This document shows, piece after piece, positions 3,893 through 62,868 of a stretch of DNA of 64,000 nucleotides. Positions within the stretch are counted from its first letter, which is position 1, and every line of letters starts with the position of its first letter. The stretch is from an uncultured bacterium (GTDB taxonomy: Bacteria > Zhuqueibacterota > QNDG01 > DTFT01): the NCBI GenBank assembly GCA_963736115.1, contig CAVTNR010000002.1, forward strand, positions 96,001-160,000. Reading direction: 5' to 3'. The notes beneath the pieces were generated by a model. That model was not told where the DNA came from, ran no database searches, and worked only from the letters and a program-made list of their open reading frames with translations. A program made the translations under genes and the position numbers.

Positions 3893-3948
3893 TTGAAGCT
3901 CCCCGCCGCCCCGCTATTCGGGACCGGGGAATGCGCTCGCTGTCAGAT
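3893..3948. repeat. short (internally deleted) copy of the TTGAAGCTCCCCGCCG...CGCTCGCTGTCAGATTC palindromic repeat
   Basis: Both ends match the element at 9864-10116; carries a remnant CCCGCT...CGGGACC of the 44-bp module. Confidence 0.7.
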
Positions 3949-3970
3949 TCGGTCAACAGGAGGATTCCGA

Positions 3971-8633: not shown

Positions 8634-9191
8634 TCAGGCGTCTCCTTCGGACGCCACCGTCAGATCCTTGAAACGTTTTTCGAAAACCTCGAAGGCGGCG
8701 CGATCGACGAGGCAGAAAACCACATGACCGATGGACCGGTGCGAACGGACGAATTCCAGGACGGTTCCGAGCATAACCGCGGCGCAGCGTTCCATAGCCA
8801 CGCCGAAGACGCCGGTGCTGACCGCGGGAAAGGCGACCGACCGGAGATTGTGCTTCTCCGCGGTTTCGAGGCAGGACAGCGTGGCCAGCCGGAGCTTGAT
8901 GTCCTCGTCCCCCTCGCCCATGCGCGGCCCGACCGTGTGAATGACGTACCGGGCCGCCAGTTTCCCGGCGCCGGTGATCGCGCAGGAGCCCGTGGGCACC
9001 GTGCCCCGGATCGTCACCCAGAGATCGCTCTCCTCCTGAATGGTCGGCCCGCCTTTCATGGCGATGGCGGCCGCCACCCCGCCGCCGTGGGAGAGCCGGG
9101 AATTCGCGGCGTTCACGATGGCATCGGTTTCCATTTCCGTGATGTCGCGGACCGCGATCTCCACGACCGTTTCACCGATGGTCCGCTTCAT
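8634..9191 (-). CDS. macro domain (ADP-ribose binding / O-acetyl-ADP-ribose deacetylase) protein
   Basis: DITEMETDAIVNAANSRLSHGGGVAAAI, VIHTVGP, AFPAVSTGVFG; ATG 9191 overlaps the PAP2 stop. Confidence 0.9.
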   Translation of the reverse strand: MKRTIGETVVEIAVRDITEMETDAIVNAANSRLSHGGGVAAAIAMKGGPTIQEESDLWVTIRGTVPTGSCAITGAGKLAARYVIHTVGPRMGEGDEDIKLRLATLSCLETAEKHNLRSVAFPAVSTGVFGVAMERCAAVMLGTVLEFVRSHRSIGHVVFCLVDRAAFEVFEKRFKDLTVASEGDA

Positions 9192-9787
9192 GCCGGTTCC
9201 CCGGAACGGTTCCGGTTGCGGTCTTTCCGAACGCCCCTGCGGGAAGCCAGGTCCTCCGCCGTCCGCCAAACCCTCAGCACGGCCCATGCAATCAGAACGC
9301 CCGCCAGGAACCCGACCGCGACATCGGACGGATAATGAACGCCCACGACAATGCGCGAGAGACCGATGCAGAACGCGATGAAGGCAACGGGCCATCCCCA
9401 CCGGCCGTGTCGGACGCAGAACAGGCAGGCCATGGCCGCGGTGTTGGCGGCATGGGAGGAGGGAAAGGACCGGGAGTGCGGCTGGGAGATGAGAAGCCTC
9501 ACGTGTTCCAGCGTGTAGCACGGCCGGTCGCGGCCGACGAGCGGCTTGATGACGAAATTCACGATCTGGTCGGAGAAAACCAGAATGACCACCGCGAGCG
9601 CGGCCGTGATGCGCCCTTTTCTCCCGCCGAACACCACCAGCGCCAGAACGCCCAGGACAATGGGCGCGATCCAGTGCTCCTCTTCCGTAATGAACGGCAT
9701 CACGGCGTCGAGCACCGGATTCGCGATGTTCCGGTTCAGGAAATGAAAAACGGCCTTGTCGACGGAATACAGGAAATCGGCGATCAT
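9188..9787 (-). CDS. PAP2 family phosphatase
   Basis: KxxxxRxRP, SFPSSH and SRIVVGVHYPSD motifs. Confidence 0.9.
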   Translation of the reverse strand: MIADFLYSVDKAVFHFLNRNIANPVLDAVMPFITEEEHWIAPIVLGVLALVVFGGRKGRITAALAVVILVFSDQIVNFVIKPLVGRDRPCYTLEHVRLLISQPHSRSFPSSHAANTAAMACLFCVRHGRWGWPVAFIAFCIGLSRIVVGVHYPSDVAVGFLAGVLIAWAVLRVWRTAEDLASRRGVRKDRNRNRSGEPA

Positions 9788-9863
9788 CAGGCTTTTCCCT
9801 GCCCCAGTGCTTGATAAATTCCCGACCTTCTAAAAAGAACCCCGCCGGAGGCCTGGCAGCTGA

Positions 9864-10116
9864 TTGAAGCTCCCCGCCGTCCCGCTGCGCGGGACCAAGC
9901 AATTAGATGCCTTCTGATTGAAGGCAAGCGGCGGGGAATCTTCTATCTGTAGAGAAGAAACATCTGAGATTCGCTCGCATAACCCCGCGGCCCCGCTGCG
10001 CGGGATCTAGCAATCATACTTACGAATTATTGAAGACAAGCCGCGGGCCTTCAACAAGAAAAGATCTTGTTGCTTGGTCCCGCGCAGCGGGGGAATACGC
10101 TCGCTGTCAGATTCAA
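9864..10116. repeat. composite palindromic repeat (TTGAA...TTCAA ends, two CCCCGCSGCAAGCSGCGGGG hairpins) carrying three 44-45 bp inserts
   Basis: Removing the inserts at 9881-9924, 9992-10036 and 10048-10091 restores two GC hairpins; the ends match copies at 3893 and 20937. Confidence 0.8.
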
Positions 10117-10136
10117 CGGGGATATCGATCCTTCAT

Positions 10137-10165
10137 AAATTAGCATTTGTTCGGGCGGGAGTCAA
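10137..10165 (-). promoter_or_regulatory. sigma70-type promoter for the PAP2-macro-amrS genes
   Basis: Minus strand TTGACT-N17-TAATTT with TG extension. Confidence 0.6.
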
Positions 10166-10173
10166 CACATTCC

Positions 10174-11442
10174 TTACGCGAACACAACGCGCTTGTGACG
10201 TTTCTTGCCCGCAGACAGGACCAGGGCCCCGTCTTTCAAGTCCGCGGACGAGATCTCGAGGGAGGGGTCGCTCACGGGCCTGTCGTTGATGTAGGCGCCG
10301 CCGCCCTGGATGAGACGCCGGGCCTCGCCGTTCGAGGCGCACATTCCGGACTCCACGAACAGCTTCACCACCCAGAGCTTCTTGTCCAGGAGGGAGACGG
10401 GCAGGGTCACGGCAGGCAGTTCCGCCTGGCCGGACTCCACGCCGAGAATGCCGGACGATGTGGCGACCTTTTGTTCCGGGTCCGCGGAGCCGAACTGCGA
10501 GGTCATGGAGCGGTATGCGGCCACGGCCTGCTCACGTCCGTGGGACAGCCGGGTTGCTTCGTAAGCGAGAATCTCCTTGGCCCGGTTGACATTCTCCCCG
10601 GTCAGCCGCCGGACCTCGTCCATGGGGAGCCGCGTGAAGAGGCCGAGATACCGCTCGACATCCCGGTCGTCGGTGTTGCGGAAGTACTGGTAGAAGTCCA
10701 CGACGGGCGTGCGGGCCGCGTCAAGCCAGACGGCATTGCCCGCGGACTTGCCGAATTTTTCGCCCGACGCGGTGGTGATGAGCGGGAAGGTCATTCCGTA
10801 CACCTGGCGGTTGAGCTTGCGCCGCGTCAAGTCGGACCCCGCCACGATGTTGCCCCACTGGTCCTGGCCGCCCATCTGAAGCAGGCAGTCATGGTCGCGG
10901 GCCAGCACGTAGAAGTCGTACGCCTGAAGCAGCATGTAATTGAATTCGATGAAGGACAGCCCGGTCTCAAGCCGGAGCTTGACGCTTTCCGCCGTAAGCA
11001 TCTTGTTGATGCTGAAATGCACCCCCACGTCGCGCAGGAATTCGATGTAGTTCAGTGGAAGAAGCCAGTCCGCGTTGTTGAGCAGAAGCGCCCGGTCGGC
11101 GGTGAAGTCGAGGTACCGGGCGAACTGGCTTTTGATTTTCAGGCCGAACGCCTGGATCTTTTCGACGGTGAGCATCTGCCGCATTTCGGACTTACCGCTC
11201 GGATCGCCCACCATGGTCGTACCGCCGCCCAGAAGCGCGATCGGCCGATGGCCGCAGGACTGCATGTGGACCAGGGCCATGATGGGCACCAGACTGCCGA
11301 TGTGCAGGGAATCCGCGGTCGCGTCGAATCCGATATAGCAGGTCACGGGCTTCGAGCCGAGCATGGCGTCGAGGCCGTCGTCGTCGGTCGTCTGGTGGAG
11401 GAAACCCCGTTCTTTCAGGATGCGGAAGGCGTTGCCCGTCAT
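10174..11442 (-). CDS. tyrS: tyrosine--tRNA ligase
   Basis: YIGFDATADSLHIGS (HIGH), QMGGQDQWGNI, KFGKS (KMSKS), C-terminal S4 domain SNGEARRLIQGGG. Confidence 0.97.
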   Translation of the reverse strand: MTGNAFRILKERGFLHQTTDDDGLDAMLGSKPVTCYIGFDATADSLHIGSLVPIMALVHMQSCGHRPIALLGGGTTMVGDPSGKSEMRQMLTVEKIQAFGLKIKSQFARYLDFTADRALLLNNADWLLPLNYIEFLRDVGVHFSINKMLTAESVKLRLETGLSFIEFNYMLLQAYDFYVLARDHDCLLQMGGQDQWGNIVAGSDLTRRKLNRQVYGMTFPLITTASGEKFGKSAGNAVWLDAARTPVVDFYQYFRNTDDRDVERYLGLFTRLPMDEVRRLTGENVNRAKEILAYEATRLSHGREQAVAAYRSMTSQFGSADPEQKVATSSGILGVESGQAELPAVTLPVSLLDKKLWVVKLFVESGMCASNGEARRLIQGGGAYINDRPVSDPSLEISSADLKDGALVLSAGKKRHKRVVFA

Positions 11443-11484
11443 TCGGTCTCCGGTGTCATGAGTGATTTCCGAATCTACACTTCA

Positions 11485-11669
11485 TGTCATTCCCGCGAAA
11501 GTTTCATTTTGAATCCGCGTCAGCGGACGGGGATCCAGTCTTTGTATTACTTCTATAATAGCCTCGGCAGACCCTTCCCCCGCACCTGGACCTTCGGCCG
11601 CTTAAAAATCGCGGGCCTTCAATATATCGAGAATATAATCGCTTGGTCCCGCGCAAGCGGGGCATGACA
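11485..11669. repeat. REP-like element TGTCATTCCCGCG...GCATGACA (copy B) with a 26-bp insert and a 46-bp insert
   Basis: Terminal inverted TGTCAT/ATGACA; inserts at 11502-11527 and 11616-11661. Confidence 0.75.
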
Positions 11670-11719
11670 TACCGTATTTGCTCATTAGAAACGGAGAAAT
11701 GTGATGAATCCTGCCTTCG

Positions 11720-12181
11720 TCACCCCTTCTTCCGCATCGCACGCTCGATGGCCCGCTTGGCGTCGCGCTCGGCCAGGTCTTCCCGGCGGTCGTACAGTTT
11801 CTTGCCGCGTCCCACCGCGAGCTCGACCTTGGCCTTGCCTCCTTTAAAATACACCTTCAGCGCCACCAAAGTCAATCCCTTTTCCTGTATCTTCCCGGTC
11901 AGTTTTCGGATTTCCTTGCGGTGCATCAGCAGTTTCTTCACGCGGAGAGGCTCGTGGTTGAACCGGCCGGCCTTCTCATAGGCGCTGACATGGAAATTAT
12001 ACAGAAAGACTTCGCCGTTCTCGATGCGGGCGTAACCGTCCTTGAGATTGGCGCCCCCGGCCCTGAGCGATTTGACCTCGGTGCCGTGCAGAGCCAGTCC
12101 AGCCTCGAAAGTGTCGAGGATGGTGTAATCATGCCTCGCCTTGCGGTTCTGTGTGACGATTTTTATATTGTCATCAGACAT
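11720..12181 (-). CDS. smpB: SsrA-binding protein
   Basis: NRKARHDY, EAGLALHGTEVKSLR, KLLMHRKEI, GKKLYDRRE. Confidence 0.97.
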   Translation of the reverse strand: MSDDNIKIVTQNRKARHDYTILDTFEAGLALHGTEVKSLRAGGANLKDGYARIENGEVFLYNFHVSAYEKAGRFNHEPLRVKKLLMHRKEIRKLTGKIQEKGLTLVALKVYFKGGKAKVELAVGRGKKLYDRREDLAERDAKRAIERAMRKKG

Positions 12182-20936: not shown

Positions 20937-20999
20937 TTGAAGCTCCCCGCCGCTTGCCTTCTGTTTGAAGGCAAGCGGCGGGGTAAGCGAGCGATCAGA
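20937..20999. repeat. copy of the TTGAAGCTCCCCGCCG repeat forming a perfect 17-bp hairpin
   Basis: CCCCGCCGCTTGCCTTC-TGTTT-GAAGGCAAGCGGCGGGG at 20945-20983. Confidence 0.8.
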
Positions 21000-21000
21000 T

Positions 21001-22023
21001 TTAAAACAGCGATTGCTGGGGCGCCGCGCCCGGTGTCAGGCCCAGGGTCCGGTAAGCCAGCACCGTGGCTTCCCGGCCCCGGGGAGTCCGCTTCAGAAAG
21101 CCTTCCTTGATCAGATAGGGTTCGTAGATCTCCTCGATCGTTCCGCCGTCCTCGCCCACGGCCACGCCGACCGTGCCGATCCCCACCGGACCTCCTCCGA
21201 ATTTTTCGATGATCACGGAAAGGATGCGCTTGTCCATGTCGTCGAGCCCATGCGCGTCAACGTCGAGCCGCTCGAGCGACCGGCCGGCGACATCCTTCGT
21301 GATACAGCCGTCTCCCTCCACCTGGGCGAAATCCCGGATGCGGCGGAGAAGGCGGTTCGCCACGCGGGGCGTTCCCCGCGAACGGACGGCGATCTCGGAA
21401 AGCCCGTCCTCGTCCGCCTCAACTTTCAGCAGCCCGGCGGTGCGCCGCAGAATCAGGCCGAGCTCCGCGGGCAGGTAGTAGTCGAGCCGGTTCACCACGC
21501 CGAAACGGGCACGCATCGGGGCAGTGATAAGCCCCGCGCGCGTGGTCGCGCCAACCAGCGTGAAATGGGGCAGGTTCAGGCAGACGCTCCGGGCGTGCGG
21601 GCCGTGGTCGATCACGATATCGAGGCGGAAATCCTCCATGGCCGGGTAGAGGTATTCCTCGACCACGGTGCTGAGACGGTGGATCTCGTCGATGAACAGG
21701 ACGTCCCGGGGTTTCAGGTTCGTCAGGATTCCGGCCAGGTCGCCCGGTTTCTCGAGCGCCGGCCCGGTCGTGGTCTTGATGTCCGACCCGAGCTCCTGGG
21801 CAATGATGTTCGCGAGCGTCGTCTTGCCGAGCCCGGGCGGCCCGTGAAAAAGAACGTGGTCCAGCGCCTCGCCCCGCTCGTTCGCCGCGCGGATGAACAC
21901 ACGGAGATTCGCGATGACTTTCTCCTGGCCGACGAACTCCGCGAAGGCCCGCGGCCGGAGGGTCTGGTCGAAAGCCTGTTCGCCTTCGAGTGGGACGGGA
22001 TCGGTGATCCGGGTGTCGGTCAT
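21001..22023 (-). CDS. ruvB: Holliday junction branch migration helicase RuvB
   Basis: LRP...[37 protein letters not shown]. Confidence 0.97.
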
Positions 22024-62711: not shown

Positions 62712-62868
62712 TTGACGAACCCCGCCGCCCGCTTCGAGGGACCCAGTTATTTTTCAGTTATCGAAGGAACCGGCGGTGTATCAAACTCGTCGGAGCGGCC
62801 AGAAGCCCCAATCTCCGATCATCCAGAAAACCGGAGCCAGAACAACCAGGCTTCTGGCCGCCCGATTG
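62712..62868. repeat. palindromic repeat with degenerate 40-bp insert plus 81-bp hairpin module, copy 2
   Basis: TTGACGAACCCCGCCG start resembles 56451; insert at 62728-62767; hairpin module at 62788-62868. Confidence 0.8.

Follow-up and report, generated by a model that had tools for sequence, protein, structure and literature searches.

The window analysed here is a stretch of 64,000 nt of DNA from an uncultured bacterium of the phylum Zhuqueibacterota (assembly GCA_963736115.1, contig CAVTNR010000002.1, positions 96,001 to 160,000), in which smpB, tyrS, a PAP2 phosphatase gene and a Macro-domain gene follow one another in this order. The spacers between these co-directional genes are occupied by inserted elements, and these contain copies of a non-coding unit that we call the module. 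The source genome (G000; the window is G000:C2:96001-160000) is a draft of 3.34 Mb in 31 contigs, with about 60% G+C and a completeness of 87%. Read on its own strand, the module begins with an optional T or C, continues with CCCGC, a loop of 3-4 nt and GCGGG, then with A-Y-CAAGC and an AT-rich core of 13-18 nt, and ends with TTGAAG-R. It is 42-47 nt long and has one GC hairpin of 5 bp at its 5' side. We find that the module is a discrete unit, present or absent at otherwise identical sites, and that it comes without a target duplication.

Copies and subfamilies of the module

A first-pass annotation, made from the letters of the window alone, had described four copies of the module, a degenerate copy and a remnant, and these are confirmed (Table 1). 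The pattern given there matches four times in the window, against 0.00 matches expected from 100 shuffles, and the matching sequences were read individually; the degenerate copy is recovered by a profile search, and the remnant is a stub of the module hairpin in an internally deleted host element. Two statements about the surroundings of the copies did not hold. The copy at 11616 is not embedded in a larger repeat, since its site, between smpB and tyrS, is the 5' foot of a small unique hairpin, and the supposed three families of host repeats come down to one element of about 110 bp, of which two hairpins and the foot of one hairpin are occupied, plus this unique site.

A strict pattern finds 75 copies in the whole genome. 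The nhmmer profile built from them has 214 hits in G000, of which 147 have E<1e-3, a further 32 have E<0.1 and another 35 have E<10. The genome contains about 150-200 copies. For comparisons between copies, we used a set of 217 unique modules, drawn from G000 and from loci fetched from its relatives. The observation that the cores of the four window copies all differ was correct, but the cores are related once the whole genome is considered: the alignment separates two types, long (17-18 nt) and short (13 nt), both of which have a clear consensus, and although 191 distinct cores occur among the 217 modules, 155 of the 217 are joined to another by no more than three core mismatches. The variety of the cores thus is the divergence of related subfamilies, and neither free variation nor a cargo. 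This homology also disposes of two other ideas, namely that the cores are captured foreign DNA or spacers, and that the copies form a CRISPR-like array of repeats and spacers, for which cores of 13-18 nt would in any case be very small.

The 5' hairpin is the only conserved one. Its pairs are of the Watson-Crick type in 201-214 of the 217 unique copies, and one of them (columns 5 and 13) switches from C:G (193 copies) to G:C (20 copies), which is a compensatory change. The rest of the 3' domain folds weakly and inconsistently (mean z -0.59, with values below -2 in 18% of copies); in the commonest subfamily, however, GYCTTC pairs with GAAGRC. The GTAG or CGTC tag of classical repetitive extragenic palindromic (REP) sequences is absent from the alignment of the 75 modules, in which the hairpin is preceded by G, C or T and followed by A-Y-CAAGC, and the two ends of the module are not inverted repeats of each other. 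The module matches no Rfam family, at gathering score or at E up to 5: at gathering score, a tRNA is the sole match in the window, and over 9780-11720 nothing scores better than E=2.5.

A single pattern for the module was scanned in 41 genomes, with a reversed pattern as control that gave 0-1 hits per genome. It has 111 hits in G000, 71, 66 and 49 in its congeners G001, G002 and G003, 14 in G026, which belongs to another family of the order, 1-3 in each of seven further genomes, and none in the remaining 29. The hairpin, AYCAAGC and ATTGAAGRC are common to the genus and to G026. In the G026-like lineage, a larger conserved repeat includes the module as a fixed part, beside an AT-rich hairpin; in the metagenome-assembled genome (MAG) concerned (L037, L049, L094, L106 and others), this hairpin of 11 bp always precedes the module, which is followed by AAAAGAAC, a repetition of the end of the 3' arm of the AT-rich hairpin, and then by a GCC-TTTTT-GCC stretch. 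A global scan that took one genome for each of 185,579 species yielded 79 stretches, and seven MAGs account for nearly all of them. Five single hits in other phyla are about what chance would produce (we estimate roughly 8). One of these five, at L083 1930-1973, is a full short-type module with its hairpin; it lies in a MAG labelled Leptospirales that belongs to a study series which also supplied one of the module-rich MAGs, and it may reflect a binning error or a real transfer.

Filled sites, empty sites and the target

Evidence for a discrete insertion comes from the comparison of filled and empty sites. We removed each of 135 full-length modules from G000, joined the flanks of 25 nt and looked for the junction elsewhere in the genome. 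For 102 of the 135, a sequence spanning the junction exists. The match is gapless in 45 of these 102 paralogous empty sites, and most of the others have a gap of 1 nt that corresponds to the optional T or C at the 5' end. Module 1 of the window (query m11) is among those with empty paralogous sites. The same is seen from the side of the host: G000 has 35 empty CCGCSG-CAAG-CSGCGG hairpins, and the pattern for filled hairpins matches 48 times, about 39 of which are filled by a module according to our reading of the listing, the rest spanning two hairpins of a second host family. Ten aligned host copies define an element of about 110 bp with two hairpins, each of which is found with and without a module; one of the ten has a reversed module, and three have an extra module at a hairpin foot.

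Sister genomes and metagenomes point in the same direction. The site orthologous to the composite insertion 9865-10117 is empty in G001 and G003, and a sediment metagenome contig of 1,062 nt leads from 9864 directly to 10118, with the composite absent. Module 4 corresponds to a clean difference of 47 nt relative to G001 at an orthologous, unique site. Contigs from two sequencing runs skip 45 nt from 10044 to 10090 (module 3), with short sides, and another contig skips 45 nt from 9878 to 9924 (module 1); the latter was assigned to a paralogous host because its side is short. The metagenome contigs therefore amount to one bridging contig and three short-sided skips of 45 nt, and the parts that they do not cover are uninformative. 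No RNA data set with this sequence is listed, and the best DNA data sets share at most 0.10 of the sequence words. Three other solo modules, some of them decayed, are retained at orthologous sites in at least one sister species, as judged from paired anchors, which at each locus were available for only one of the three subject genomes. The family must thus have both an old history and recent activity.

No target duplication was found at the paralogous and orthologous pairs of empty and filled sites that we compared, as the first-pass annotation had stated for the window. Junctions can be ambiguous by 1-4 nt, because module and target both start with C. The module does not fit a classical MITE (a miniature transposable element with inverted-repeat ends) of the DDE type, since terminal inverted repeats are missing and filled and empty sites differ by the module alone. 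It should be kept in mind that all assemblies are draft MAGs and that many copies ride in larger repeats and hence are not independent.

The 135 full-length modules also reveal the target rule. The base 3' of the insertion is C in 124 of them. The largest site class, with 64 of the 135, is ^CAAG in a hairpin loop (the caret marks the insertion point), and the same loop on the other strand, ^CTTG, accounts for only 3; 32 modules lie at ^CCCG at the 5' foot of a GC hairpin, 16 in the loop of another module's own hairpin (^C-NNN-GCSGG), and the remaining 20 at other sites, mostly decayed forms of these classes. The ^CAAGC site is made up of the loop and 3' arm of CCGCSG hairpins. As hosts we found the 110-bp element, a second two-hairpin element, two classical REP families of the GTAG type, other modules and unique DNA. 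Behind an earlier module, ^CAAGC can receive a second one (queries m98, m101 and m120), so that the site is defined by the 3' sequence and not by the 5' arm. The target is thus a short sequence at GC hairpins, just 5' of a C (^CAAGC or ^CCCGC), and repeats as such are not targeted. Of the first-pass idea of a minimal non-autonomous element that targets repeats, the minimal, non-autonomous insertion stands, as shown by the paralogous and orthologous empty sites, and the target has to be redefined.

Repeated insertions build nested mosaics that resemble bacterial interspersed mosaic elements (BIMEs). Head-to-tail runs of at least three short-type modules with a period of 38-40 nt were seen in MAG records (L096 6010-6127, L101 2116-2237, L111 815-925), and a similar run lies at G000:C9:80399-80540; in such runs, each module sits in the hairpin of the next. 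Some REPs of the GTAGGTCCGA type have the module hairpin as their apex (G000:C30:76023-76172 and C30:72907-73056); these would arise by insertion into a REP, followed by deletion of the remaining module. The 110-bp host element with its two CCGCSG-CAAG-CSGCGG hairpins occurs in the window and at about 40 other places in G000 (for example C27:116634-116741). Its ends read TTGAAGC... and ...CAGATTCA, and it is itself insertion-polymorphic between sister species.

Two further features of the window deserve mention. In addition to the copies described in the first pass, the window contains a truncated, palindromised copy at 20955-20973. The 5' side of the surrounding hairpin (20938-21005) has been turned into the exact complement of the module 3' end plus loop, so that a perfect stem of about 17 bp results; to judge by its sequence, this looks like intrastrand templated copying. 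The other feature is an open frame of 422 codons on the minus strand (window 8634-9902) that runs into module 1. Its Macro domain is real, and its 5' part is probably spurious, because the PAP2 gene (9188-9787) overlaps it in another frame.

Table 1. Module copies and related features of the window, and RAYT genes (REP-associated tyrosine transposases) of the source genome. C:G and T:A types refer to columns 17 and 46 of the module alignment.
Feature	Position	Strand	Context and evidence
Host element with internal deletion	3893..3950	+	module hairpin stub left at about 3909-3926
Composite insertion: two-hairpin host element (about 110 bp minus passengers) and 3 modules	9865..10117	+	between tyrS and PAP2 gene
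Module 1, 45 nt, C:G type	9880..9924	+	between 5' arm and CAAG loop of host hairpin 1; pattern and profile match; empty paralogues
Module 2, 46 nt, T:A type	9991..10036	+	equivalent position in host hairpin 2; pattern match, host alignment
Module 3, 45 nt, C:G type	10048..10092	-	on its own strand at 5' foot of host hairpin 2 (^CCCGCGG)
Module 4, 47-nt insertion, C:G type	11616..11662	-	foot of small unique hairpin between smpB and tyrS; co-oriented with both genes
Host-type hairpin holding module 3' part alone (20955-20973)	20938..21005	+	5' side is exact complement; also matched as empty-site neighbour of module m93
Degenerate module	62727..62767	+	loop position in hairpin of second host family; nhmmer E=0.76, sequence read
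RAYT gene	G000:C2:71373-71945		about 24 kb before window start; flanked by own REP family
RAYT gene	G000:C17:75009-75827		flanked by own REP family
RAYT gene	G000:C19:57396-57962		flanked by own REP family

A covarying pair and the possible mode of movement

Two distant positions of the module are tightly coupled. Column 17, two positions past the hairpin, and column 46, the last base of the module, read C:G in 109 copies, T:A in 99, T:G in 4 and C:A in 4. They are Watson-Crick pairs in 208 of 216 copies and have the highest mutual information of all column pairs, and the neighbouring pair C18:G45 is kept in 214 of 216. On a rough tree built from the other 45 columns, columns 17 and 46 change 26 and 25 times and their joint state 30 times, against a mean of 72 for shuffled labels. 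Both states occur in the long and in the short core type, and two identical cores carry both; among the pairs of cores that differ by at most 1 nt, 14 are C:G versus T:A and 10 include a half-switched state.

In IS608, cleavage sites are picked by complementarity to a guide beside the hairpin (PMC3201880), and the cleavage site of a Marinomonas RAYT is likewise picked by complementarity to a motif beside the hairpin (PMC8266576). The pairing of 17 with 46 and of 18 with 45 in the module resembles this guide/cleavage-site pairing of Y1 HUH transposases. As best explanation for the data, we suggest that the module is a very small non-autonomous mobile element, which we consider probable, if only just, with single-stranded DNA, a Y1 HUH enzyme acting in trans and the guide pair as its mechanism. 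The module would move as folded single-stranded DNA that a Y1 HUH enzyme of the RAYT or IS200-IS605 kind cuts and rejoins in trans, and the dinucleotide G-R at its 3' end would be chosen by pairing with the Y-C beside the hairpin foot, as in IS608 and some pairs of RAYT and REP.

Candidate enzymes are present. G000 encodes three Y1 proteins, and each of them passes the cut-off of NF047646 (REP-associated tyrosine transposase). No protein of this genome passes the cut-off for an IS200-type TnpA, so that the Y1 proteins are of the RAYT type only. The three genes (Table 1) form three REPtron-like loci in a genome of 3.3 Mb. One of the flanking REP families starts with GTAGGTCCGA and has 56 exact copies, often as inverted doublets, another starts with GGTAGCCGC, and the third is a GC-rich hairpin followed by ACTCCC. 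The target of IS91-type elements is CAAG/GAAC. For an IS91-type Y2 enzyme, PF04986 found no match in G000, nor did it in the control genomes, so that this search says little. The first-pass annotation had proposed mobilisation in trans by HUH or RAYT enzymes, and the RAYT genes and the guide-like covariation fit a Y1 enzyme. Its further thought that the end motifs might elsewhere bracket a protein gene led to no enzyme: no transposase lies in the 3 shortest of 8 candidate brackets (pairs of orphan halves), which contain a protein with LVIVD repeats, a weak hit of the transglutaminase-like kind and a protein with a tail of the type IX secretion system.

Several observations speak against this explanation or weaken it. 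Each of the RAYTs has a REP family of its own, two of which are clearly GTAG-tagged, whereas the module lacks GTAG. None of the three RAYT loci in G000 is flanked by modules, and neither is any of 20 RAYT loci in G001, G002, G003 and G026, where one module lies 1.3 kb off and one further hit is marginal; since no RAYT locus examined is module-flanked, we infer the moving enzyme rather than observe it. RAYT homologues occur in 26 and 36 of the 41 genomes, and there is no discriminating co-occurrence with the module, a comparison that is uninformative because RAYTs are nearly everywhere in the order. The RAYT on contig C17 has no close homologue in the three sister genomes. The orientation of the modules relative to GC skew is unbiased (37/39/33/27, p=0.49), a test that is weak because host elements carry many of the copies along. 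The genome is a draft at 87% completeness. The coupling of columns 17 and 46 could partly reflect two old lineages, given the roughness of the 45-column tree. The geometry is also unusual. Known Y1 systems have their guide on the 5' side of the hairpin, and the target that they recognise precedes the insertion point on its 5' side. On the module's top strand, both positions are reversed; its bottom strand agrees with the known arrangement, though with the paired dinucleotide on the element side of the cut.

Other explanations have to be weighed against a Y1-driven element. The repeats might spread with no dedicated transposase at all, by template switching, hairpin slippage or gene conversion among GC hairpins, the module being simply the piece that is copied most often. 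The palindromised hairpin at 20938-21005 points to intrastrand templated copying in these repeats, junctions often share runs of C with an ambiguity of 1-4 nt, tandem arrays with a period of 38-40 nt exist (L096, L101, L111), and no enzyme gene was found beside the modules at the loci and brackets examined. We nevertheless regard this process as an unlikely source of the module. Its boundaries recur within 1 nt in at least five contexts that are unrelated to each other, one of which is a unique orthologous site. Within the same palindromic hairpins, ^CAAG is strongly favoured over ^CTTG, by 64 to 3; the ends are conserved between families of the order, and the coupling of columns 17 and 46 has been kept through many switches.

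We give an equally low probability to another site-specific recombinase of a kind that leaves no target duplication and is known to home to hairpin repeats; candidates are an enzyme of the IS110 family with its guide RNA and a tyrosine recombinase of the integron type that acts on folded single strands. There is one IS110-family gene in G000, and IS110-family elements insert into REPs (PMC12288879, PMC3184786). However, the IS110 gene has no module within a distance of 1.5 kb, an element of 44 nt is too small to encode a guide RNA, and the ends of the module lack attC-like paired boxes. It appears less probable still that the host keeps the module mainly for a function, for example as a protein-binding site, a transcript stabiliser or terminator, or a small RNA, its spread being secondary. 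The ends and hairpin of the module are indeed conserved between families of the order, with the hairpin showing compensatory change, the module is a fixed part of a larger repeat in the G026-like lineage, and module 4, between smpB and tyrS, has the orientation in which these genes are transcribed. Against this stand the lack of an Rfam match (gathering score, and E up to 5), the occurrence of modules in both orientations, nested in one another and truncated, the inconsistent fold of the 3' domain, and the variable presence of modules at housekeeping loci of sister species; moreover, a host function would be compatible with mobility.

Relation to known repeats and significance

The closest kin of the module are the REP, BIME and REPIN (REP doublet forming a hairpin) repeats, of which it is a variant with an anatomy of its own. 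They have in common short, high-copy, intergenic GC-hairpin repeats, mosaics, the absence of target duplications and RAYT genes in the genome. The module differs by lacking the GTAG/CGTC tag and by flanking none of the RAYT genes examined; furthermore, it consists of one hairpin and an AT-rich tail that ends in TTGAAGR, and is neither a palindrome nor an inverted doublet.

The statement of the first-pass annotation that no described element has such an architecture is roughly right for the exact anatomy, but REPs within small palindromes are in print. According to Di Nocera et al. (2013), GTAG-23 REPs of Thermomicrobium roseum, among other examples, lie inside CCGSSCC-n3,4-GGSSCGG palindromes, a matter that the authors say was not studied in detail (PMC3733652). 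In both cases, a small palindromic repeat lies within a small GC-rich palindrome that also exists in many empty copies. In contrast to the GTAG-tagged REPs of T. roseum, the insertion point of the module is exact to the base, and the module also nests in itself and in unique sites and carries a long-range covarying pair.

With IS200/IS605 elements such as IS608, the module shares the absence of target duplications, hairpin recognition and sequence-specific insertion, and its covarying pair resembles the guide pairing of IS608 (PMC3201880). IS608 carries hairpins at both ends, each with its guide on the 5' side, and its target is 5' of the insertion point, whereas the module has one strong hairpin at its 5' side. 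It also differs from what would be expected of an IS200/IS605 miniature in that the conserved target sequence lies 3' of the insertion on the module strand. IS1397, IS621 and ISPpu9 home to REPs (PMC3184786, PMC12288879). Such insertion sequences and the module both target hairpin repeats, but the former are autonomous, kilobase-sized and encode their enzymes, and the module is non-coding and comprises 44-47 nt. In the literature on nested hairpin elements of the REP, REPIN and RAYT kind and on MITEs in REPs, as far as it was searched, the anatomy of the module is not described. More tentatively, one may ask if the module represents an undescribed class of micro-transposon with a single hairpin and a single-stranded intermediate: about 45 nt long, with its own guide/cleavage-site pair (17-18 with 45-46), moved in trans by domesticated Y1 enzymes, homing to the loop or foot of GC hairpins, and nesting without limit into BIME-like mosaics. 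We think that this is possible but rather doubtful.

For annotators, the modules matter because they inflate or create spurious long frames and alter the spacers beside housekeeping genes such as smpB and tyrS. To our knowledge, activity of RAYTs in vitro is established, but a complete cycle of transposition is not on record, and the spread of REP-type repeats is poorly understood. The module family offers a clean substrate for studying this spread, being very short, with exact boundaries and a base-exact insertion point, and with filled and empty sites available both within one genome and between sister species. From the two states of its covarying pair, one can predict the single mutations that should break cleavage and the double mutations that should restore it. 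Finally, the module shows how nested mosaics can be assembled stepwise from one small unit.

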